DNA of 64,000 nucleotides from a virus. Positions 5,059 to 60,663 of this stretch are shown piece by piece (position 1 is the stretch's first letter; every line of letters begins with the position of its first letter). Position numbers and translations under genes: made by a program. The DNA is taken from IMG/VR virus record IMGVR_UViG_3300023049_000574, positions 81,522 to 145,521 of that record. The stretch is one strand, 5' to 3'. The notes beneath the pieces are model-generated. The model worked only from the letters and a program-made list of their open reading frames with translations. It was not told the DNA's origin and made no database searches.

Positions 5059-6147
5059 ATGAGTAAAAAAATAAGCCCAATCGGTGATCCAACTCTAACC
5101 GATGTATTCGAAGAGGAATTACCTATCGAACAACGTGATAAAGAACAATATGATCTTATCATGCAACACACAAATTTCCCTAAGCCTAACAGTGTAATGA
5201 CTGCACAATTTTTAGGAAAGGACGAAACGCATTATTTACTTAATGCAAACTTAAAGGATGTAATCCGAGTTCCTGTTAACAGAAGTGAAAAGAAAATATT
5301 CTCTACCCTAGCGGAAGGATCTGATATCGATGTACTAGTTACAGGTATTTCAGATGATACCAATGAATATTCTATTAACGGAAGTGTTAGTCAGATTTAC
5401 CAAGAAAAAGCATTCCAAATCCTCAGAAACATAAATGATGATGAGTATGTAAGCGTTAATATCTTAGAACTTACTCCTGGTGGGTACAGATGTGAGATCA
5501 ACATGGAAAACTGCTTACTCGATGCGTTCTTACCACAGTTCTTAGCAGATGTGAATAAAATAAGAGACGAAGCTAAAGATAATTTAGTAGGGAACACTTA
5601 TAACATATGTATCGAAAGTTATTCAAGAGATAAGAGAACTTGGATTGTATCAAGAAGAAAATACTTGAAGCAACTTATTCCTTCTCACTTAAACGATCTC
5701 GATAAAGAAACTAACTATACAGGTCATGTTACAGGAACAGCACCATTTGGTATTTTTGTTCAATTTAACGAGTGTTTAACAGGATTGATTCATAGCTCTA
5801 ACCTTAATGATGATGTATTAGGAGAATTCGAAAACGGAAACATTAAAGCGGGTGATGAAATCACATTCAAAGTAAAAGATAAGTTGAATAAAAACAAGAT
5901 TATCTTAACACAAAAATCAACAGTTTCTTTTTGGGATACCATTGAGATAAACCAAGAAGTAGAGGCAGTGATCAAAGATCATAAACCTTTTGGGACTCTT
6001 GTGAATTTGGATAACGAAACCCTTGGGTTAGTTTATAAAAACGAACAAAGTGAACAAGTGTTAAGCCTGAAAAAAGGAGATCCTATTAACGTCAAGATCA
6101 TAAAATTTAATCGAGATAAAAGAGATATATTTTTATCAGTTATATAA
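5059..6147 (+). CDS. Ribosomal protein S1-like multi-S1-domain protein
   Basis: Repeated S1/OB motifs: GHVTGTAPFGIFVQFNECLTGLIHSSNL, IKDHKPFGTLVNL..GLVY, AFLP..., IVSRR. Confidence 0.8.
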   Translation: MSKKISPIGDPTLTDVFEEELPIEQRDKEQYDLIMQHTNFPKPNSVMTAQFLGKDETHYLLNANLKDVIRVPVNRSEKKIFSTLAEGSDIDVLVTGISDDTNEYSINGSVSQIYQEKAFQILRNINDDEYVSVNILELTPGGYRCEINMENCLLDAFLPQFLADVNKIRDEAKDNLVGNTYNICIESYSRDKRTWIVSRRKYLKQLIPSHLNDLDKETNYTGHVTGTAPFGIFVQFNECLTGLIHSSNLNDDVLGEFENGNIKAGDEITFKVKDKLNKNKIILTQKSTVSFWDTIEINQEVEAVIKDHKPFGTLVNLDNETLGLVYKNEQSEQVLSLKKGDPINVKIIKFNRDKRDIFLSVI

Positions 6148-23154: not shown

Positions 23155-23196
23155 CAAAATAATTAAACAAAAGACAAAAAGTTTTATATATAGAGT

Positions 23197-23256
23197 ATGA
23201 AAATAATTAATGTAAATAGTTCGGTATCACGTATAACTTCTAGGAGTAGAGGGTGA
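23197..23256 (+). CDS. Ser/Arg-rich leader peptide MKIINVNSSVSRITSRSRG (putative attenuator peptide)
   Basis: 19 codons with AGT, TCG, TCA, TCT, AGT and CGT, AGG, AGA; 3' end AGTAGAGGG is complementary to the terminator 5' arm. Confidence 0.8.
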   Translation: MKIINVNSSVSRITSRSRG

Positions 23257-23283
23257 TATTACTATGTACATAACTTATATAGG

Positions 23284-23315
23284 AAAAGCCTTCTACTTTA
23301 GTAGAGGGCTTTTTT
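23284..23315 (+). terminator. Attenuator-type intrinsic terminator before tRNA cluster 1
   Basis: GCCTTCTAC-TTTA-GTAGAGGGC followed by TTTTTT. Confidence 0.9.
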
Positions 23316-23324
23316 CATTTATAT

Positions 23325-23404
23325 GCTCCTGTAATCGGCTCTAGCTACGAACTAGATACCCGTAATCGGAATTGAAAATGTGGGTTCGAGTCCCCCCAGG
23401 AGTT
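23325..23404 (+). tRNA. Non-canonical D-armless tRNA-Arg(ACG)-like gene
   Basis: Acceptor GCTCCTG/CAGGAGT; anticodon arm TCTAG-CTACGAA-CTAGA; T loop TTCGAGT; only 8 nt between acceptor and anticodon arms; 23-nt variable segment. Confidence 0.7.
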
Positions 23405-23412
23405 CAAAACAC

Positions 23413-23501
23413 GGAGAGGTGGCAGAGCTTGGTTTATTGCACTAGTCTTGAAAACTAGCATACTGTAAAAGGTATCGAGGGTTCGAATCCCTCCCTCTCC
23501 G
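23413..23501 (+). tRNA. tRNA-Ser(TGA)
   Basis: GGAGAGG/CCTCTCC, CTAGT-CTTGAAA-ACTAG, long variable arm, GGTTCGAATCC, G73. Confidence 0.95.
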
Positions 23502-23506
23502 CAAAT

Positions 23507-23595
23507 AGTAGGGTGCATGAGTGGCTTAAGTGACTTGCTTGGAAAGCAAGTGATCGTGTAAAAGCGATCCGTGGGTTCGAATCCCACTCCTACTA
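23507..23595 (+). tRNA. tRNA-Ser(GGA)
   Basis: AGTAGGG/TCCTACT, CTTGC-TTGGAAA-GCAAG, long variable arm; atypical A1-U72 and A73. Confidence 0.85.
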
Positions 23596-23599
23596 CAAA

Positions 23600-23688
23600 G
23601 GTGAGTTGGCAGAGTGGACGATTGCGCTTGTTTGCTACACAAGTGATCGTGTAAAGGCGATCCGAGGGTTCGAATCCCTCACTCACCG
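23600..23688 (+). tRNA. tRNA-Ser(GCT)
   Basis: GGTGAGT/ACTCACC, CTTGT-TTGCTAC-ACAAG, long variable arm, G73. Confidence 0.92.
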
Positions 23689-24562
23689 CTAATAAACAAA
23701 AGGGTTATTATTGATATAATAATTAAAAAAGTAATGGGAAATAATATTAAAAAAATAGACATTAAAGAGTTTAGAGAAAAAGGATACTTACAAGAAGTTA
23801 ACCGTATGTTTTTACATCCATTGGGATTAGTATTATCAGTATCAGTTGATGATAATGCTAATGAAAAATTAGATGGTATTTGGGATTATAGAGATGATGA
23901 AGAAGGGATCATTTATGATATAGCTAACTCAGATACAGATAGACAAAATAGATTCAAAAAGAACATATCATTCATCAGCGATGAGTTAGAAGGAAGAAAG
24001 GAAAGGAGAAAGGAAATCCTTGGCTTCGATATAGAAAAAGTAAAATAGTTATGGAAGAGTATAATAAAAACACGTATGTTGAGAATATAAAGATACAAGG
24101 TTATCTCACTAAGGAATATGCTATTCATAAAAATGGGGAAGTTAGAGAAAAGATAGATCGTTTAATGGATGTAATTAACAACCAAAGAAAAGAAAGAGAT
24201 ATCGAGCGTTGGGAAAATCTTAATATGGAATTCAAAGAACCATGGGATGTTCCTTCGCTTCCGAGAGATGAAGAATTAATGAATAATTATGTAATTCCTG
24301 CATTATATAGATGTGGTGCTATAGCTAAAAAAGACTTAAAGAAAGACCATTATTATTTCGGGAAGTATAGAAACAGCAATTATGGTAAATGGAATGGTGA
24401 AAAATTTGAAATACAAAGATATGAATGGAATGTATTAGTTGATGATGATTGTTTTCACTTCGAAGACGATGACGGATTCGCATTATTTGTTCCTATAAGA
24501 GAGGTTACTGAAAAGGAATTCTTAGATAGAGAATTAAATATATAAGAAAAAGAACTTTTATA

Positions 24563-24982
24563 ATGAAGAAGATAAAGAATTTCGAAGATTTCATAAACGA
24601 ATCAATATACGGTGCTGACGTAGCCGATCCTATGGTAGAAAAAGAATGGGATGATCTATACGAAGAAGCCAAAGAAGAACCAATTAAATCTAAGATCAAA
24701 GAGATGTTAGTTGAGATATATAAAGATAAAGACACTTTAGTTAAAGTTGCAGACCTTTTTGAATGGAGTGATGGATCTAATGGTATCATTAACTTCAATG
24801 AATTAGACCACTTTTTAACAGACGTAGGATATAAATGCTACGCAGATGATCCTTCTAATATAGAAGACCTAGAAGATTTCAAAAAATGTATCCTATATGC
24901 ATATGCTTCTACGGATTTAGGATATAAAGGAGAAAAACATAGAGATCATCAATATGATCCTAATAACGAATTTTCTTGGTAA
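24563..24982 (+). CDS. Hypothetical protein with MKKIKNFE N-terminus
   Basis: MKKIKNFEDFINE. Confidence 0.55.
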   Translation: MKKIKNFEDFINESIYGADVADPMVEKEWDDLYEEAKEEPIKSKIKEMLVEIYKDKDTLVKVADLFEWSDGSNGIINFNELDHFLTDVGYKCYADDPSNIEDLEDFKKCILYAYASTDLGYKGEKHRDHQYDPNNEFSW

Positions 24983-25001
24983 TTTTTAGTACTTTTGTGT
25001 C

Positions 25002-25544
25002 ATGAACACAAAATACGTAGAAACTTATATTAATAATATTCCTTCAGACTTACCTAATATTATTAATTGGGAAGAAAGAGAAGATGCGCCTAGAAAGGAG
25101 ATTTTCATGGCAAATGAGGAATTGAGTTATACCTATGGTATGGGTAGAGGAATTAGAACATATGATTCTGTACCCATGATACCTTTTGTCAAGGATGTAA
25201 TGGATAAGATCAATTCGGATTATAACTATAACTTAGATATCTGTTTCTTAAATTATTATAAAAATGAAAAAATGTGGTTGGGTTGGCACTCTGATGACAG
25301 CCCTGAGATCGATCAAACTGAACCTATTGCGGTGGTCAGCATTGGCGCAGAAAGAGATATTTGGGTAAAGACTAAAGACTATAAAGGAGTCATTCCTGAT
25401 GAATGGAGATTTAACCTGAAAAGTGGATCTTTATTCATGATGTTAGCAGGATTTCAAGATAATCATTTACATAAAATTCCTAAATGGGATAAGAAATGTG
25501 ATTGGAGAACATCATTAACATTCAGGAAATATAAGAAAATTTAA
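25002..25544 (+). CDS. AlkB-family 2OG-Fe(II) dioxygenase
   Basis: LNYY...GWHSD...HKIPK...RTSLTFR. Confidence 0.9.
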   Translation: MNTKYVETYINNIPSDLPNIINWEEREDAPRKEIFMANEELSYTYGMGRGIRTYDSVPMIPFVKDVMDKINSDYNYNLDICFLNYYKNEKMWLGWHSDDSPEIDQTEPIAVVSIGAERDIWVKTKDYKGVIPDEWRFNLKSGSLFMMLAGFQDNHLHKIPKWDKKCDWRTSLTFRKYKKI

Positions 25545-26528
25545 TACTTTTTTCTTATATTTGTACCATGGACATACTATTAGACTACACAGGAGAGAAA
25601 GGAATCGGCTTTAAAGCTGCTAACTTTTACTTAGAAAACGATCAATCTATCTTCTTGTTAGGATATGATACGTTAGCTGATTTATATGTAGTGCTGAATA
25701 TCAAAGAGAATAACGAAAAGTTCTATTGGTGTCAATGTAAGATTTTCAGAGATGAGAAACACTATGAAGAAATCATCAATAATCTAACTCCCGATTCTTT
25801 ACATCAAGTGACTTCTGTATATCAAGATGGATATCCTGATGGGTTTTTTGATAACGTTAATAAAGTTAATTCACAGAAATTGGATTACTTCCTTACTGAT
25901 TCGACATTAGAACAATACAACTATCTAAAAGATGCGGATTTATATCTAGAACATAGTTATAGTAAGTAGAACTATTAAAACCAAGTTTATAATGTGTTTA
26001 AAGGTGATAATTTTTTGATTGGTAACAAGCATAAATTCAGGGAAGTAAAATGCTATGTTGATTAACTATTACTAATGTTTGAATATAAATAATAATGGTT
26101 ATATTTGTATAAATTATAATAAAAGGTGCAACATTATAATATAATAAACTTTATATAATATTATGACTTTTTTAACTTTTTTACACACATTAATAGATAT
26201 TTTCCTACTTATTGTAGCACCTTTGATGATACTTTCATACGAAGTATTAACGTTCAGTGATAAGATAATAGGAAAGACTAATGAGGACGGAGTAGTTTCG
26301 CCTTTTTATTCTATGTGCGAATCTATGTATTTGTTATGGATTGTAATGGCTTATTTGTTCTTAGAGAATAGAAACGCAGTAATAATATTAGTGTTAATCA
26401 GTATTTTAGGAATCTTCTTTGGGAAGTATAAAGCCTTTAATATCTTTGATAATATCTTATCTATAATAATAGTACTTTATGTAGTAATATTGAACTTTAA
26501 ATATTTTTAAACTAAGAACCTAGAAAAC

Positions 26529-27128
26529 ATGATTACAAGTATATCGAAAGAATTGAACCCAATTGAAATACCTTTCTTTGAGGGTGAGGTTAGTATGCTA
26601 CCTTTTGATTTAAGTGATTTATCAACTCTACCTATAGAGTTTAGACAGACAGCAAAACAAATGATTAAAAACTTACCGAATAAGGTAGGAGAGGCGTTCT
26701 TAACTATACATGGAAAGTTTGTTAAAAAAACTAAAACATTAAGACGTGGCGCACCCCATATCGATGGTAACTATTTAAAAGAAGTTGCTTCTTGGGGAAA
26801 TGGTGGTGGAAACGGATGGAAGGTCGGTGAAAATGGTATGCAGTTAACAAGTAAAGAACACGCTATTTCTTACGAGAATAAGAAAGGTGGGATGTTAATT
26901 GCTTCTGATTACTCGGCTTGTAAAGGATGGAATGGTGTATTTAATGATAAAGCAGGAGTCGGAGGCGATTGTAGCCATTTAAACTTAGATGATGGTTTTA
27001 TGTTAGAAGCTAATAAAGTATATTATAGTAACTCTCAGTTCGTACATGAAAGTCTACCATTAGATAAAGACGTACATAGAGTTATGTATAGAATCACATT
27101 ACCTATTGAACACGAATTTAAAGCATAG
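26529..27128 (+). CDS. Putative 2OG-Fe(II) oxygenase-fold protein
   Basis: PHIDG...VHES...R...R. Confidence 0.5.
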   Translation: MITSISKELNPIEIPFFEGEVSMLPFDLSDLSTLPIEFRQTAKQMIKNLPNKVGEAFLTIHGKFVKKTKTLRRGAPHIDGNYLKEVASWGNGGGNGWKVGENGMQLTSKEHAISYENKKGGMLIASDYSACKGWNGVFNDKAGVGGDCSHLNLDDGFMLEANKVYYSNSQFVHESLPLDKDVHRVMYRITLPIEHEFKA

Positions 27129-27488
27129 TAATATGAAAGTAACAATAGATAGAACGTTTAATTATGGTTTTAGGCAAATATGGCTCAGAAAGGATTTTGA
27201 GCTTCCCTACACCCCTTTCTATGGTATGTGGATCATAGATCAAGATAATGACCAAGAAATCAGTTTAGAACTAGTTAATAACAGCTATGTAGCTACTATG
27301 ATCAACTATTACCCAACAGAAGAAAAAACTACTATTGATATTAGGGAGGTTTGGAAACAGCCTGTAACAGAAGAAACAGTTGATGATATATTAGAAAGTT
27401 ATACTAAGGCGGGTTGGGAAAGAATGGATCTTACTGATGCTGAGGAAATGAAAGAATTTATGCACGAACAATATTTAAAAACCAAGTA

Positions 27489-28046
27489 ATGGGAAAATTA
27501 GACATAAGAATGGATGAAATACTTGATAGTATTTCTGAAAACGGAATAAATAATTTATCAAAAGAAGATAAGTTATTTTTAAAATATGAATCAGATGGAA
27601 TGGATTATCAAAGTATAATCTATAAAATACATATAGAACTTAATCCTAAAGCAGAAGAAGAAAGGAAGATTAGTAATGATATACTTAATATTTGTTTTCC
27701 TACTCCTGAGGAAGAAGGAACAACAGAGGATGAATTTCTTTATCGTTATAAATTGAGTGGTAAAATATATGCTTCTCTTGGTGAGAATTGGACTGAGGGG
27801 GAATATGATTTTAATTTAGGTCCTTCAACAACGAGAAACAAGTTGAGTGATGCTATTTTTATTGACGAATATTTAAAAGATATTTGCCGAAAAATAAACA
27901 TTAGTGAAAACACATTTGATGTTGGTATCGCTGAAAACGTTCATATGATATATGCTAATTCTGAGGACGAAGCTAAAAAAATAATTGGTCTTATTTTAAA
28001 GGAGATCAAAGCTGATGGATTTGAAATTGAATACGCAAAGACATGA
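27489..28046 (+). CDS. Hypothetical protein with N-terminal DUF6576-like motif
   Basis: MDEILDSISENGINNLSKEDKLFL. Confidence 0.55.
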   Translation: MGKLDIRMDEILDSISENGINNLSKEDKLFLKYESDGMDYQSIIYKIHIELNPKAEEERKISNDILNICFPTPEEEGTTEDEFLYRYKLSGKIYASLGENWTEGEYDFNLGPSTTRNKLSDAIFIDEYLKDICRKINISENTFDVGIAENVHMIYANSEDEAKKIIGLILKEIKADGFEIEYAKT

Positions 28047-28447
28047 TAAGAGAAGACTCAAAATATGTAGTTAAAGATCTTGGTTTAAAAGATATTGAAT
28101 ATTATGATGCTACTATCGATTATAAAACTAAACTAATCGCTTTGATTAAGTTTATCAGTGATAAAAAGGCTTGGTATTATATATGTGATGATTTTATTGT
28201 AGCTTATCATAAGAAAGAAGGTATAGTGATTAGTACAAGTGATGTAGTAGATTCGTTATCTATTCCCGATATTAGGAATAAGCTATCCCCTATTACACAT
28301 ATGATCTCTTTGTTGAAGATAGATAATTGTCCTCAGGGATATATTAAGGATTCAATTAAGTCAGCAGAGAAGGCAGTAAAAGATTTAGCACAGTTTTAGT
28401 AAACTTTTGATAAGTTTTTCAATAAGATATTTAAAAGAAATATAGAT

Positions 28448-29020
28448 TTGGAACTACTTATTATTACAGGAATGCCCTATTCGGGAAAAGGCACACAATG
28501 CGAATTTTTAAACGACTACTTAGGATATAAGCATATCTCTATGGGAGATGTTTGTAGAGCAGAAAAAGAAAAAGGAACAGAACTCGGTAGAATAATGTCT
28601 GAGTATCATGAAAAGGGTAACTTAGTTCCTAATAAATATATCGAAGAAATATTTGAAAATCTTATTATAGATAATATTGATGAAAAAGGAATCATCTTAG
28701 ATGGACACCCTAGAACACTTTCACAAGTAGATCAGATAGTTAGTATGATCGATAAAATTCACGTACAGAACGTAATCAATATTGATGTTGAAGAAACAAC
28801 TCTTTTAGAAAGAGCTAAAGAACGAGCTAAAAATTCTGATCGCCCTGATGATAAAAACCCCGCCATTCATCTAAAGCGAATAGAAGTATTTAAAGAAAGC
28901 ACTCTACCTGCAGTTGAATATATGAGTAAAATAATGCCATTTGTGAACATTGATGGTAATGGATCAGTTGAAGAAACAAGAGAGAAGATAAAAGAAAACA
29001 TATTTATCTTTGAGGATTAA
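28448..29020 (+). CDS. adk: Adenylate kinase family protein
   Basis: GMPYSGKGTQ P-loop, HISMGD..R, ILDGHPRT..Q, R.DD. Confidence 0.88.
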   Translation: MELLIITGMPYSGKGTQCEFLNDYLGYKHISMGDVCRAEKEKGTELGRIMSEYHEKGNLVPNKYIEEIFENLIIDNIDEKGIILDGHPRTLSQVDQIVSMIDKIHVQNVINIDVEETTLLERAKERAKNSDRPDDKNPAIHLKRIEVFKESTLPAVEYMSKIMPFVNIDGNGSVEETREKIKENIFIFED

Positions 29021-29030
29021 TATATACTCT

Positions 29031-29843
29031 ATGAAGTATATAAATAAATTCAATGAAAAGGTAACCGCAGCATTATTACCCACTGAACTAAGACATAAAA
29101 ACCTTTTATATCATTCTACTGATTTAGAATCATTTAAGAAAATCATAGAAAGTGATAAATTATACGGAACAGTTCAGTATGATTGGGGCATATCTACTTC
29201 TAGAAATAAACATTATGCTTTTGGGAGAAACGACACTGATTATGATGTGATACATGACGGTGGTGATGTTCAATTAATATTAGATCGAGATTTAGTTAAA
29301 AGACACCATAAAATAAAGGCTTATGATTGGGAAGAATTTAAAACAACTAAAGGTAAAACAGGTGTATATCATGATTATATACAAGCAGAAGATAAGATAT
29401 TAGCTAATTCATTAAAAAATGTAACGAAATATATAGTAGGTATTCATATAGTTAAAGACAAATTTATTGATGATATATTTGAAGACCCAATTATTAAAGA
29501 CAAACTTTTAAGTAAGGATATAGTTGTGTTTAATGAAGATTGGGAAATAATATTTAATAGCAAAGTTAAAAATACTGATACCGAATTCGAAAAAATTAAA
29601 GATTCTAAATTCAATAGATTACCTGATTTAACTTTATCGGAAATAGTAAATAATTGGGATGACGTTAAAGACATAGAAGATGATAATATTGAAACTATTA
29701 AATATTATGTAGACAACAAAGAACTATTACCTAAACAAATTCTAACATATGACAAAAAGGGATTATCTGATGGTTATCATAGACTGATAGCTATGAAGAT
29801 AGTAGGTGTAGATAAGTTTAGGTATAAAATTGATAATTGGTAA
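29031..29843 (+). CDS. Protein with MKYINKFNE N-terminus, ART-like and ParB-like motifs
   Basis: LYHST...ISTSR...; C-terminal LSDGYHRLIA; TAATATATA at 29018. Confidence 0.45.
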   Translation: MKYINKFNEKVTAALLPTELRHKNLLYHSTDLESFKKIIESDKLYGTVQYDWGISTSRNKHYAFGRNDTDYDVIHDGGDVQLILDRDLVKRHHKIKAYDWEEFKTTKGKTGVYHDYIQAEDKILANSLKNVTKYIVGIHIVKDKFIDDIFEDPIIKDKLLSKDIVVFNEDWEIIFNSKVKNTDTEFEKIKDSKFNRLPDLTLSEIVNNWDDVKDIEDDNIETIKYYVDNKELLPKQILTYDKKGLSDGYHRLIAMKIVGVDKFRYKIDNW

Positions 29844-29864
29844 TTAATTCTTATATTTGTTTTT

Positions 29865-30179
29865 ATGAAAGTATATATAGCAAGTCCTTACACTAAGGGC
29901 GACACTGCAATAAACGTTAAACGACAATTAGATACATTTGATATACTAATGGATAAGGGATATTTTCCTTTTGCTCCATTGTATAGTCATTTCCAACATA
30001 TGGCACACCCAAGACCATACGAAGATTGGATGACATATGATTTAGAATGGATATTAGTGTGTGATTGTGTACTACGTTTAGATGGCGAAAGTAGTGGTGC
30101 GGATAGAGAAGTCGCACATGCTAAAGAACACGGAATCCCCGTGTATTATTCATTAGAAGAATTATACGCAGCTACTTAA
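29865..30179 (+). CDS. Nucleoside 2-deoxyribosyltransferase-like (DUF1937/DUF4406-type) protein
   Basis: VYIASPY...CDCV..L..ESSGADRE...A...GIPV. Confidence 0.75.
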   Translation: MKVYIASPYTKGDTAINVKRQLDTFDILMDKGYFPFAPLYSHFQHMAHPRPYEDWMTYDLEWILVCDCVLRLDGESSGADREVAHAKEHGIPVYYSLEELYAAT

Positions 30180-31279
30180 TGGATCTAACTAAATATAATA
30201 ACGATCTAAGTGATGTCACTGATTATTTATCAGAACTAGGATTATCTAAGTTAAAGGATAAACATGATGGTAGATACAATAAATATAGTGTTCCTAAAGC
30301 AGACTTCGAAATACATGTATATAGTTTTATAAAGCAAGGTGACTCAGATTTATTTAAATATTGTGGTGATGAATTATTAACTTTAGATATTGTTAGAAGG
30401 TTCATGAATATAAGTCATGAAGAATCCAAAGAATTCACAAAAGATATTAAAAGAGATATCCATATCATTAATATAATACCTAAAGGATCTAGAGCAGGAA
30501 TGGTTACTATAACCAATCTAGAAGATTTAGATAACTACTTAGTGGAATATATTCCTTTTTATAAAAGGGATACTAGAATAAATAATATTTTAAAATTATA
30601 AATGGATTTTTTCAAATTAATTTCAAGAGAAAATGTAGGTAAGACTTTCCATATTAAGTTCTTACCCGCTATTGGATCAGATGATATAATAGATAACTAT
30701 CCTGTACCTTTTGGTAAGTATCATAAACAAATATACGTTTCTAATGCTATGGTTAACGGAGAGTTTAAACAACTTGTATATAATCAAGTGATGAGGGACT
30801 TTTTACAAATATTCTTTCTTGGGACGAGGGGATATATCATCCATCCTGATCCTGAAAAATTAGATTGTGATATAACATATAATCATCATAGAATAAATAC
30901 TACTCTTGAAAACGTATATTTAGATTTAGAGAATAGATATGATGTTACAAGAGATGAGTTAATATATGTTGACTATCCTGATAATGTACACCCATTTAAT
31001 ATATTATATCCTGCTAATAATGAATATATAATTAATCCTTATAGCTTTAAACTTACTGTAAGGGAGATAACTCTTTTTGGAACAAGTGGTTTATTAGATT
31101 TGGGAAAAATCGAAACGGTTAAATATGATCCTAATTTAATAATTAAAGATCAGAGTGATTCTACTATTAACGAAGCAAACGATTTTATGAAAAGCAAACC
31201 TAGTTTAGAAGGATTGGCTAAGTATTATGTGGAAGCATACCACAGAGATAAATTCATCGATGATGTTTTAGAAGGTTAA
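30179..31279 (+). other. Two hypothetical genes (30179-30601, 30602-31279) with C-terminal RDxKI-type motif
   Basis: End KRDTRINNIL and HRDKFIDDVL. Confidence 0.5.
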
Positions 31280-31524
31280 TTAGAATAAGATATGATGAAA
31301 AAGATACTATTAAAAAATATCTTAAAAATTTATTGAATATTAAATAAATTTTCTTATATTTACAGTCCTAATAAAAAGAGGTAAAGTAGAAACTTCTTAT
31401 TCTGACTTTTTAATAAGGAGGAATATTGTATAGAATGCTAGAGTAAACTAGAAATCTCTTTTTATTTTTAAACTTTATTATATTTACATCCTATAAGGAG
31501 AAGAAAACTTTTATATATACAACA

Positions 31525-31596
31525 ATGACAACATTAAATAACATAGCAATTATAGCGAGAGCGAGAGCTTTTAACAGACCCCGAATTGGAGTGTGA
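31525..31596 (+). CDS. Ile/Ala/Arg-rich leader peptide MTTLNNIAIIARARAFNRPRIGV (putative attenuator peptide)
   Basis: ATA GCA ATT ATA GCG AGA GCG AGA GCT run; 3' end CCGAATTG is complementary to the terminator 5' arm. Confidence 0.8.
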   Translation: MTTLNNIAIIARARAFNRPRIGV

Positions 31597-31620
31597 CTAT
31601 AATTAATATGTCAATTTTTA

Positions 31621-31658
31621 AAACCTCAATTCGGATTTCCGAGTTGAGGTTTTTTTTT
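31621..31658 (+). terminator. Attenuator-type intrinsic terminator before tRNA cluster 2
   Basis: CCTCAATTCGG-ATTT-CCGAGTTGAGG followed by 9 T. Confidence 0.92.
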
Positions 31659-31698
31659 GTTATAGATCATCGGGTCGCAAATTGCGACCACAATAAAT

Positions 31699-31775
31699 AC
31701 TGACGTATCCCCGATGTCTTATATACATCATGAAGGTAGCGGTTGAAAACGTGGGTTCGAATCCCACCGTCAGTA
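31699..31775 (+). tRNA. Non-canonical D-armless tRNA-Ile(TAT)-like gene
   Basis: ACTGACG/CGTCAGT; GATGT-CTTATAT-ACATC; GTGGG-TTCGAAT-CCCAC; 7-nt linker in place of a D-arm. Confidence 0.7.
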
Positions 31776-31783
31776 CAAAATAT

Positions 31784-31863
31784 GCATCAGTATCCGAGGG
31801 GAGCTTCTAACTCCTTATCCGTAATTGGAGATGAAAATGTAGGTTCGATTCCTATCTGGTGTA
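31784..31863 (+). tRNA. Non-canonical D-armless tRNA-Arg(TCT)-like gene
   Basis: GCATCAG/CTGGTGT; GGGAG-CTTCTAA-CTCCT; GTAGG-TTCGATT-CCTAT; 8-nt linker. Confidence 0.7.
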
Positions 31864-31873
31864 CAAATTTTAT

Positions 31874-31948
31874 GGGGTGTAGCACAGGCGTAGCCTAAAT
31901 CGTTTGCAACGATTTCAGAACAACAGGGTTCGATTCCCTTACACTCCA
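31874..31948 (+). tRNA. tRNA-Ala(TGC) with aberrant D-arm
   Basis: GGGGTGT/ACACTCC with G3:U70 and A73; AATCG-TTTGCAA-CGATT; T loop TTCGATT. Confidence 0.75.
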
Positions 31949-31954
31949 CTAAAT

Positions 31955-32031
31955 GGTTCGGTAGCTTAATTGGATAAAGCAATCGGTTTCTAACCGATAG
32001 AGTGAGAGTTCGACCCTCTCCCGAATCACCA
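31955..32031 (+). tRNA. tRNA-Arg(TCT), canonical, CCA encoded
   Basis: GGTTCGG/CCGAATC, D-arm GCTT-AATTGGATA-AAGC, ATCGG-TTTCTAA-CCGAT. Confidence 0.95.
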
Positions 32032-32038
32032 AATATAT

Positions 32039-32101
32039 GGGGGTTTAGCTCAGTCTGACCGTAAGCGGCACATTTGCAATGTGCGTCACACATCGATTCG
32101 A
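32039..32101 (+). pseudogene. 3'-truncated tRNA-Ala(TGC)
   Basis: 5' half and GCACA-TTTGCAA-TGTGC intact; sequence breaks at TTCGA with no 3' T-stem or acceptor strand. Confidence 0.7.
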
Positions 32102-32696
32102 AGAAGTGTAAAAATATAGAATATGAAAATGAAACTAAAAATACTAACGTTAGATGAACTAAAAGAAAGAATTAAAACATTCGATAAAAAATATGGAAAA
32201 TATTATGAAAAAGAATAACAATAACTTAGGAGGACACCGCTACCAAGCATTGATACTCGACACCAAAGGAAACTAAAGAAATATTCTAAGAACTTCTTAG
32301 AGATGTTTAACTTTTTCCTCAATAGTCATAGGAATGGGATATTAACCTTTTCGGGAACAAATGATTTCAGTGTCGAGTATAAACAAGATGGATATGATAG
32401 TAGGTTATGTTTTAGGAAGTTTGATAATGGTGATTACCAAAACAAAGTTGTACATACTAAACACCCTAATATACTATTTAGTGTAATTAAAGGAAAGAAG
32501 TCATGGGGTCTATTTGTTAATGAATGGTCAGATGGAATCGTTGAATCTAGCTTTACTATCGATGAAATTAAAACAGTATTCGATGAACAGAATATCAAAG
32601 TTCCCGATCCATTATGGAAAGACTTTTTAAACACAATTGGTAGAAAGAAAAGGATAAGAAATCAAAAATACTACAATGAGCTTATTAAAAATAGTA

Positions 32697-59556: not shown

Positions 59557-60663
59557 TTATGTAAAAAGTTTAGTATTTTCTATAATACCACCAACTAAAA
59601 TCATATTATCTTTATATACGACTGCAGATTGACCCTTAGCAGTAGCATTAAAACGATCAGAAGTATATACATCAAAACCATCATCCTTTAAGTGAATTCT
59701 ACCATTAATAGCATCACCCGTTGATCTAACTTTAACAGATACTTCTTCTCCATCAACGATGTTTAACATATAATTAGGATCTTTGGCTACAATGACATTC
59801 CTTTCTAAATCTTTTCTACGACCTAGATAAATCTTATTTGTATCAGGATCTATACGTGTTATGTATACGGGGTAACCTAAAGCTACACCTAATCCCCTTC
59901 TTTGTCCAATAGTATAAAAAGGATGACCCTTATGTTTCCCGACAACCTTATCATTCTCAAAGAATTCGCCACCGTCTAATTTAGATAGATCAGGATTCTT
60001 TCTTAGTAAGAAATTGTCTTGTGTTCCATCCATATCAACAAAGCAGATATCAGCACTTTCAGACTTATTAACTATATCAGTTAATCCTCTTTTAGCTGCC
60101 ATCCATTTTACGTCTTCCTTTAAATATTCACCTAACGGAAATAATGTTTTTGAAAGATCATTTTGTGATAAATTCCATAAGAAATATGTTTGATCTTTAG
60201 TAGTATCTTTGGGTGTACCGATACTATACTTACCATCCTTTTCGATGATCTTAGCATAGTGTCCTGTGGCTACATAATCACAATTTAGTTTATCGGCAAT
60301 TTCCATCATAGACCCCCACTTCACATGTTTATTACACATAACACAAGGATTAGGGGTATTGCCGACACTACTGTTATTTACGTAGTCATCGATCACATAT
60401 TTAGTAAATTCTTTGGTAAGATCCACAAGATTAAATGGGAAATCATATTCTACTGATATGTTTCTAGCATCATTAACATCATCTAAGTTACAACACTTAG
60501 TTGAACTCATATTAGATGTTAGTTGTAGTCTTTCTTCACCAAGCTTTAACATAACACCAATTACATCTGCACCTGCTTCTTGTAATAAGATAGCAGCCAT
60601 AGATGAATCGATTCCACCTGACATTCCAACTAATACTTTTTTATTTTCTAAATTAGGTAACAT
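59557..60663 (-). CDS. mnmA: tRNA 2-thiouridylase MnmA
   Basis: SGGIDS, TPNPCVMCN, ATGHY, KDQTYFL, ES.DICF, YTIGQRRG, GQSAV.Y. Confidence 0.95.
   Translation of the reverse strand: MLPNLENKKVLVGMSGGIDSSMAAILLQEAGADVIGVMLKLGEERLQLTSNMSSTKCCNLDDVNDARNISVEYDFPFNLVDLTKEFTKYVIDDYVNNSSVGNTPNPCVMCNKHVKWGSMMEIADKLNCDYVATGHYAKIIEKDGKYSIGTPKDTTKDQTYFLWNLSQNDLSKTLFPLGEYLKEDVKWMAAKRGLTDIVNKSESADICFVDMDGTQDNFLLRKNPDLSKLDGGEFFENDKVVGKHKGHPFYTIGQRRGLGVALGYPVYITRIDPDTNKIYLGRRKDLERNVIVAKDPNYMLNIVDGEEVSVKVRSTGDAINGRIHLKDDGFDVYTSDRFNATAKGQSAVVYKDNMILVGGIIENTKLFT

Follow-up and report, generated by a model that had tools for sequence, protein, structure and literature searches.

The 64,000-nucleotide (nt) stretch of viral DNA analysed here, which we call the window, is the final 64 kb (positions 81,522 to 145,521) of the 145.5-kb IMG/VR virus record IMGVR_UViG_3300023049_000574 (30% G+C). 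It carries three genes, for Arg(ACG), Ile(UAU) and Arg(UCU), which quite probably encode functional elongator transfer RNAs (tRNAs) with a topologically rewired core, predicted to read the codons CGU/CGC/CGA, AUA and AGA, respectively. They make up three of the eight tRNA-like genes in the record. Comparison with viral relatives indicates that the D arm in these genes is rewired, not lost: the strand between the acceptor stem and the anticodon arm pairs with bases that lie 3' of the anticodon arm, beside a segment that resembles a D loop.

The three genes share one plan, namely a 7-bp acceptor stem, a connector of 7–8 nt, an anticodon arm with a 5-bp stem and a 7-nt loop, a segment of 21–23 nt ending in TGAAAAY, and a canonical T arm. 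All seven acceptor pairs are present in each gene (G.U allowed), the anticodon loops are CTACGAA, CTTATAT and CTTCTAA, and the T arms are GTGGG-TTCGAGT-CCCCC, GTGGG-TTCGAAT-CCCAC and GTAGG-TTCGATT-CCTAT, with a loop of the GTTCRANYC type. A9 is separated from the anticodon stem by only 5–6 bases, so the D-arm hairpin of RF00005 (stem 10-13/22-25) is absent. A first-pass annotation, made without database searches, had placed and dissected the three elements in this way, and inspection of the sequence agrees with it. It had also pointed to D-loop-like strings 3' of the anticodon arm, which are found as TAATCGGA, TAGCGGT and TAATTGGA, and to AATTGGATA, which is found in the D loop of the canonical tRNA-Arg(TCT) nearby. 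There is no encoded CCA in the three genes, and their 3' trailers (CAAA) are similar to those of three of the five canonical neighbours in the window. Moreover, a 21-nt junction/T-arm motif, TGAAAAYGTRGGTTCGANTCC, has three copies in the window, while none of 100 dinucleotide-preserving shuffles contains it. Standard tRNA finders miss the genes, as had been anticipated: ARAGORN models none of the three correctly in its default, relaxed (-ps80) or mitochondrial (-mt) mode. In the alignments to the Rfam tRNA model RF00005 (gathering score 29 bits), the D arm is deleted from all three and 18–20 nt are inserted in the variable region. The Ile(UAU) and Arg(UCU) genes score above the gathering value and Arg(ACG) below it, and the gathering run over the whole window listed only one of the three.

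Relatives were collected by scanning IMG/VR for the 21-nt motif and parsing the retrieved stretches by structure. This gave 110 viral stretches, nearly all of the same anatomy, and 88 distinct sequences after parsing, 87 of which were used to build a covariance model, R1, for finding members without the exact motif. Members score 46–85 bits with R1, in contrast to 40 bits or less for canonical tRNAs in the same contigs; the scores of the window genes (74.5–76.1 bits) are high partly by construction, as these genes are in the seed, while about 35 non-seed members show that the gap is real. The statistics below refer to 129 distinct relatives, except for the 8-nt-connector subtype (53 sequences, of which nearly all are Arg; both Arg genes of the window belong to it) and the tests of a local hairpin and of encoded CCA (87 and 88 sequences, respectively). 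The acceptor stem is 97.5% paired and all seven of its pairs covary, the anticodon stem is 96% paired and the T arm 97%. The acceptor and anticodon stems covary fully.

The connector takes part in a further helix. Its bases 12–14 pair with the three bases directly 5' of the D-loop-like bulge (T-A-R...GG-A/U). The pair 12:45 is CG in 106 sequences, UA in 18, AU in 4 and GC in 1, and is never unpaired; the pair 13:44 is GC in 69, CG in 32, AU in 25, GU in 1 and UA in 1, and is unpaired in a single sequence; the pair 14:43 is formed in 64% of the sequences by six pair types. In the subtype with an 8-nt connector, positions 10 and 11 pair in addition with the two bases 5' of TGAAAAY, using A:U, G:C, C:G and U:A, and the five pairs from 10 to 14 are formed in 50, 44, 53, 53 and 39 of the 53 sequences. 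All five are Watson-Crick pairs in Arg(ACG) and four in Arg(UCU), where 14:x1 is A.C, a combination common among relatives. When the 3' partners are slid by 1–3 columns, pairing falls from 94% to 37–46%, and shuffled 3' partners never attain the observed pairing score. Two other foldings were rejected. A local CCG-TAAT-YGG hairpin, that is a translocated D arm, is paired in only 52% of cells across 87 relatives, because the GG is invariant while its supposed partners vary. An extended anticodon stem alone (connector CGG with the CCG after the anticodon arm) is the same helix as that of the final model in Arg(ACG) and leaves the pairs at 10–11 unexplained.

Much of what the first-pass annotation proposed for this family is borne out by the relatives, namely a tRNA with a rearranged order of arms, a D-loop-like element 3' of the anticodon arm, and stems that covary. 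Its term D-armless is not, since it overlooked the main replacement helix between bases 12–14 and the bases 5' of TAR...GG. The pairing that it suggested for the linker (TAAT/ATTG and the like) stands in part: the two inner pairs (10–11) have the support of covariation, in the 8-nt subtype only, and TATC/GTTG in the Ile gene fails as written. The outer pairs (T8 and A9 with the T and G of TGAAAAY) involve invariant bases, so that no covariation is possible there.

The signals of the tRNA elbow and core are retained as well. T8 and the A of TAR, the partners of a U8-A14 contact, are invariant across the family, and GG is conserved in 128 of the 129 sequences. Without exception, the R of TAR is matched to the base that precedes the T stem, as A/U in 91 sequences and as G/C in 38; in terms of sequence, this combination marks an R15:Y48 Levitt pair. 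When the tree is built without the R and Y columns, R changes its state at least 17 times, and only three of the contrasts lie on well-supported branches, which are few because the sequences are short; an independent-pairs test gave 3–6 pairs, nearly all concordant, too few for a sign test and with few supported branches. Thus, the genes are not D-armless in the mitochondrial sense, because the connector pairs with covariation and the GG and R15:Y48 signals are kept. Furthermore, GG is followed by A in every one of the 79 Arg genes and by U in 40 of the 48 Ile genes. All 48 Ile genes have A as the discriminator, which varies among the Arg genes. Position 37 is A or G in all 129 sequences, and U33 is kept. 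In the bacterial identity sets compiled by Giege and Eriani (PMC9976931, Table 1), Arg is specified by A20, C35 and U/G36 and Ile by A73 and U20; judged by these sets, the identity bases of the family match those of bacterial tRNA-Arg and tRNA-Ile. The anticodons are limited to TCT (43), TCG (20), ACG (10), CCT (4), GCG (1) and CCG (1) for Arg and to GAT (26), TAT (22) and CAT (1) for Ile, the sole exception being one TCA. CCA directly follows the discriminator in 25 of 88 relatives, compared with about 1.4 expected by chance.

Covariation among the relatives demonstrates the order of the chain and, with it, a three-way junction. The chain runs from the acceptor 5' strand through U8-A9, the helix strand 10–14 and one base into the anticodon arm, then by way of about three bases and the opposite strand of the helix to the D-loop-like bulge (T-A14-R15-...-G18-G19-N20), and on through up to two paired bases and TGAAAAY into the T arm and the acceptor 3' strand, with the last base of TGAAAAY acting as Y48; in the Arg subtype, two more bases after the bulge pair with connector bases 10–11. 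This wiring makes a three-way junction of the acceptor, a D-like helix stacked on the anticodon stem and the T arm, in place of the four-way junction of the cloverleaf. The connector would enter the 5' strand of the anticodon stem directly, like positions 22–26 of a cloverleaf, and the returning strand would precede T-A14-R15, like positions 10–13. With the strands placed in this manner, the helix can occupy the site of the D stem, stacked on the anticodon stem, and the bulge may reach the T loop through G18G19. The L shape would then be kept, with the elbow and core contacts U8-A14, R15-Y48 and G18G19-T loop, and only the connectivity would be altered. Host arginyl- or isoleucyl-tRNA synthetases would be expected to charge such tRNAs through the usual identity bases, and translation would use them for codons that are heavily used by the AT-rich phage.

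Table 1. Rewired tRNA genes with their parts, and other features, in the window (numbered from its first letter)
Feature	Positions	Strand	Details
Rewired tRNA-Arg(ACG)	23325-23404	+	8-nt-connector subtype; sequence, RF00005 24.6 bits, R1 76.1 bits; GCTCCTG / TAATCGGC / TCTAG-CTACGAA-CTAGA / 23 nt ending TGAAAAT / T arm / CAGGAGT + T
Acceptor 5' strand	23325-23331	+	
U8 A9	23332-23333	+	
Helix strand 10-14	23334-23338	+	ATCGG
C	23339	+	
Anticodon arm	23340-23356	+	
Anticodon	23347-23349	+	ACG
TAC	23357-23359	+	
CCG	23360-23362	+	pairs with 14-12
D-loop-like bulge	23363-23370	+	TAATCGGA
AT	23371-23372	+	pairs with 11-10
TGAAAAT	23373-23379	+	
T arm	23380-23396	+	
Acceptor 3' strand	23397-23403	+	
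Discriminator	23404	+	T
Rewired tRNA-Ile(UAU)	31699-31775	+	short 7-nt-connector subtype; sequence, RF00005 35.5 bits, R1 74.5 bits; ACTGACG / TATCCCC / GATGT-CTTATAT-ACATC / 21 nt ending TGAAAAC / T arm / CGTCAGT + A
Acceptor 5' strand	31699-31705	+	
U8 A9	31706-31707	+	
TCCCC	31708-31712	+	
Anticodon arm	31713-31729	+	
Anticodon	31720-31722	+	TAT
ATGAA	31730-31734	+	
GG	31735-31736	+	pairs with C11, C12
D-loop-like segment	31737-31742	+	TAGCGG
T	31743	+	
TGAAAAC	31744-31750	+	
T arm	31751-31767	+	
Acceptor 3' strand	31768-31774	+	
Discriminator	31775	+	A
Rewired tRNA-Arg(UCU)	31784-31863	+	8-nt-connector subtype; sequence, RF00005 33.0 bits, R1 75.7 bits; GCATCAG / TATCCGAG / GGGAG-CTTCTAA-CTCCT / 23 nt ending TGAAAAT / T arm / CTGGTGT + A
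Acceptor 5' strand	31784-31790	+	
U8 A9	31791-31792	+	
TCCGA	31793-31797	+	
G	31798	+	
Anticodon arm	31799-31815	+	
Anticodon	31806-31808	+	TCT
TAT	31816-31818	+	
CCG	31819-31821	+	
D-loop-like segment	31822-31829	+	TAATTGGA
GA	31830-31831	+	
TGAAAAT	31832-31838	+	
T arm	31839-31855	+	
Acceptor 3' strand	31856-31862	+	
Discriminator	31863	+	A
Leader open reading frame 1	23197-23256	+	directly upstream of first cluster
15-bp intrinsic terminator	23282-23315	+	follows leader 1
Leader open reading frame 2	31525-31596	+	directly upstream of second cluster
15-bp terminator	31620-31653	+	follows leader 2
Canonical cloverleaf tRNA-Arg(UCU)	31955-32031	+	encoded CCA; ARAGORN, RF00005 66.9 bits
Non-canonical tRNA-Ala(UGC)	31874-31949		ARAGORN (anticodon at position 32), RF00005 20.1 bits
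Degenerate Ala(TGC)-like fragment	32041-32110		probably a pseudogene
AlkB-like 2OG-Fe(II) oxygenase	25002-25544		between the two tRNA clusters
S1 RNA-binding-domain protein	5059-6147		
QueC-like protein	59557-60663		

Compared with the class I tRNA-Arg and tRNA-Ile of bacteria and phages (RF00005; for example the canonical gene in Table 1), the rewired genes have the same acceptor stem with discriminator, anticodon arm and T arm, they keep U8, A14, R15:Y48, G18G19 and A20 (Arg) or U20 with A73 (Ile), though in a permuted order, and like class I phage tRNAs they are located in phage tRNA clusters. They differ in the absence of a D hairpin from the region of positions 9 to 26. The equivalent of the D stem is formed by the 5' connector strand with one or two strands 3' of the anticodon arm, the D loop bulges out only after that arm, TGAAAAY replaces the variable loop of 4–5 nt, and the junction is three-way instead of four-way. 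A strict definition of the cloverleaf excludes them on the D hairpin alone; its other structural features are present. The red alga Cyanidioschyzon merolae reportedly has tRNAs that are permuted at the level of the gene (said to have been described by Soma et al. in 2007) and whose processing restores a normal cloverleaf RNA. The phage genes resemble these in the non-standard order of the tRNA parts along the gene, but show no sign of RNA rearrangement, so that the mature molecule itself would be rewired. Mitochondrial D-armless tRNAs also have no D hairpin and a short connector from the acceptor to the anticodon stem; these mitochondrial forms, which are flexible and confined to organelles, have neither G18G19 nor the conserved elbow contacts (PMC7609411), whereas the phage genes retain GG, R15:Y48 and a T loop of canonical type and build a D-like helix anew, with covariation. 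Class II tRNAs and allo-tRNAs have a normal D arm and a long, self-contained variable-arm hairpin (Mukai et al., PMC5389517). A long stretch (18–23 nt) between the anticodon and T arms is common to them and to the phage genes, in which, however, this stretch pairs with the 5' connector and holds the D-loop motif, a self-hairpin fails covariation and the D hairpin is missing. No description of the layout was found in searches of the full-text literature, whose coverage leaves out most subscription journals, or in a 2020 review of non-canonical tRNAs (PMC7609411).

The rewired genes also occur in cultured phages. A homologue with the anticodon ACG and an encoded CCA was found through a BLAST match in Vibrio phage D260, in an unannotated gap between tRNA-Leu and tRNA-Pro, where the neighbouring tRNAs also encode CCA. 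R1 confirmed members in three further cultured phages, Maribacter phage Panino, Brevundimonas phage Kabachok and Serratia phage Kamaji, and in all four carriers the rewired gene is without a tRNA annotation. Its positions are 66332-66411 of OZ195864.1 in Vibrio phage D260, 4365-4443 of ON287373.1 in Kamaji, 265039-265117 (complement) of ON529852.1 in Kabachok and 28066-28145 of PP540027.1 in Panino. The matches from BLAST in the T5-like Escherichia phage HMD-P3 and in Lactococcus phage phiL47 are not clear members (R1 30.8 and 18–24 bits, respectively). A scan with the same 21-nt motif over one genome per species of 185,579 prokaryotic species returned 53 stretches, 45 of which are ordinary tRNAs (mostly Gly) or chance matches; the eight rewired copies all lie on contigs of metagenome-assembled genomes, mostly short ones, and none in an isolate chromosome. 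By these scans, the rewired family is virus-specific and common to more than 100 phages.

Some individual loci deserve mention. In Maribacter phage Panino (PP540027.1), the coding sequence of a 'hypothetical protein' (27999-28106; L167:1402-1509) overlaps the 5' part of the rewired tRNA-Arg(UCU) at 28066-28145 and is likely a false gene call. The gene L060:440-527 has an Arg-type rewired body with the TAATTGGA bulge and, ahead of the T arm, a longer insert; its anticodon, TCA, is that of a UGA reader, and the gene may be a suppressor derived from the rewired family. A canonical Ile-GAT gene and a rewired Ile-TAT gene adjoin a third gene, which is Ile-GAT-like, at L067:651-734, and its equivalent is found upstream of L059:5210. 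The D arm of this third gene is normal and its variable arm is long, with GTACAT at the end; it may be a further unusual layout of phage tRNA-Ile, or an intermediate form.

The genomic context of the three genes is in keeping with a role in decoding. AGA makes up 67% of the Arg codons in the record and ATA 48% of the Ile codons (42.6 per 1000), and the sole Ile tRNA in the record is the rewired one. Each of the two tRNA clusters is directly preceded by a short leader open reading frame (ORF) and a 15-bp terminator (Table 1). Leader 1 has the codons AGT TCG GTA TCA CGT .. TCT AGG AGT AGA, and leader 2 ATA GCA ATT ATA GCG AGA GCG AGA GCT .. AGA. It had been noticed early that the anticodons match codons of the leaders, and the leaders do use codons that are read by the rewired tRNAs: CGT in leader 1 is decoded only by the rewired Arg(ACG), and ATA, which occurs twice in leader 2, only by the rewired Ile(UAU). 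In addition, each leader is able to pair by its 3' end (the last codons) with the 5' arm of its terminator, the alternative folds having -19.6 and -14.2 kcal/mol. The combination looks like a ribosome-mediated attenuator gating the tRNA genes.

The same design is seen directly upstream of rewired tRNAs in unrelated viral contigs (L021:454-713, minus strand; L025:5548-5807; L023:5123-5382, minus strand), where a short ORF, rich in ATA in L021 and L025 and in Ser/Arg codons in L023, is followed by a strong terminator and then by the tRNA. L021 and L025 share AAAACTTTTT(A)ATATATA upstream of the leader, which is close to AAAACTTTTATATATA (31505-31520) and AAAAGTTTTATATATA (about 23177-23192) in the window; this motif may be a promoter.

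Among the neighbours in the second cluster, the tRNA-Ala(UGC) is non-canonical too, with G3:U70, a 4-bp D stem (AGGC/GCCU), a 3-nt loop without GG and a 10-nt variable region. The Ala-like fragment behind the canonical tRNA-Arg(UCU) has a 5' acceptor strand, the start of a D arm and an anticodon arm (GCACA-TTTGCAA-TGTGC), and is without a proper T arm or 3' acceptor strand. Scans of the neighbouring ORFs against PHROGs and Pfam found no tRNA-processing or synthetase genes able to explain the wiring; the matches were limited to an AlkB-like oxygenase, an adenylate kinase, an S1-domain protein, RNR and a QueC-like protein. A tblastn search with one large ORF against GenBank phages found no relatives.

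Several points weigh against reading the three genes as functional tRNAs with a rewired core. The three-dimensional fold is inferred from covariation only, and RNAalifold and single-sequence minimum free energy folding do not recover the short bulged helix. The helix is weakest in the Ile gene, because its short subtype clearly keeps only the CC:GG pairs (C11:G and C12:G), and Arg(ACG) falls under the Rfam gathering cut-off. CheckV rates the record as about 58% complete, so that the lack of any other Ile tRNA holds for the record and not for the whole phage. Furthermore, the canonical tRNA-Arg(UCU) shares the cluster with the rewired one, 90 bases downstream of it, and AGA decoding is thus duplicated; the rewired copy is therefore not needed merely for the supply of AGA, which leaves room for a special role. 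We tentatively raise one such role, which on present evidence is less likely than not to apply: phages may have evolved a non-cloverleaf, three-way-junction tRNA that is still charged and read but escapes a factor acting on the canonical core of D arm and variable loop, for example a defence nuclease of the host that targets tRNAs, a toxin or a recognition step specific to the host. Such an escape would explain both the location beside a canonical isoacceptor and the absence from cellular chromosomes. The same duplication, the restriction of the family to viruses and an odd core that could change recognition by host enzymes would also fit tRNA-like decoys or sponges, produced and perhaps processed, that bind a host tRNA-targeting nuclease or another tRNA-binding factor and do not decode; the first-pass annotation had suggested a decoy or resistance to nucleases. 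We consider this improbable, since a decoy has no need for isotype-specific A20- or U20-like bases, for an A73 shared by all Ile members or for an anticodon loop that is perfect, including U33 and R37, nor for codon-matched leaders whose ATA and CGT only the rewired genes read, and since no other Ile tRNA accompanies the rewired one in a record where ATA accounts for 4.3% of the codons.

The failure of RNAalifold to predict any pairing of the connector, together with the local CCG-UAAU-YGG hairpin that single-sequence folding draws in Arg(UCU) and Arg(ACG), could instead be taken to mean that the genes are truly D-armless tRNAs of the mitochondrial kind, with an unstructured connector and a long segment forming a variable-arm-like hairpin, which comes close to the view taken in the first-pass annotation. 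This is very unlikely in view of the low pairing of that hairpin among the 87 relatives, whereas the helix between connector and segment is paired in about 88% of cells, with four pair types per position and two core pairs that are almost never broken. As for decaying pseudogenes or chance tRNA-like sequence, for which the one copy under the Rfam cut-off and the degenerate Ala-like fragment in the same cluster might speak, there is hardly any likelihood left: conservation effectively refutes it, as 129 distinct relatives keep every stem by compensatory change, the motif is not expected by chance, the anticodons are limited to two amino acids and CCA is encoded in more than a quarter of the 88 relatives examined for it.

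The cloverleaf is regarded as universal outside organelles. If the reading of these genes as functional tRNAs with a rewired core is true, they would represent a conserved and widespread class of tRNA that keeps the contacts of the L shape with a different threading of the chain. They would then be a natural experiment on which tRNA architecture is needed by synthetases, EF-Tu, RNase P/Z, modification enzymes and the ribosome, and would offer a new scaffold for engineered or orthogonal tRNAs. The tRNA repertoires of phages are undercounted, in view of the share of rewired genes in this record and of the unannotated copies in the four cultured phages, and analyses of codon supply therefore miss decoders of AGA, CGN and AUA. 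And if the rewiring protects these tRNAs from tRNA-cleaving defences of the host, it would be a new principle of counter-defence.

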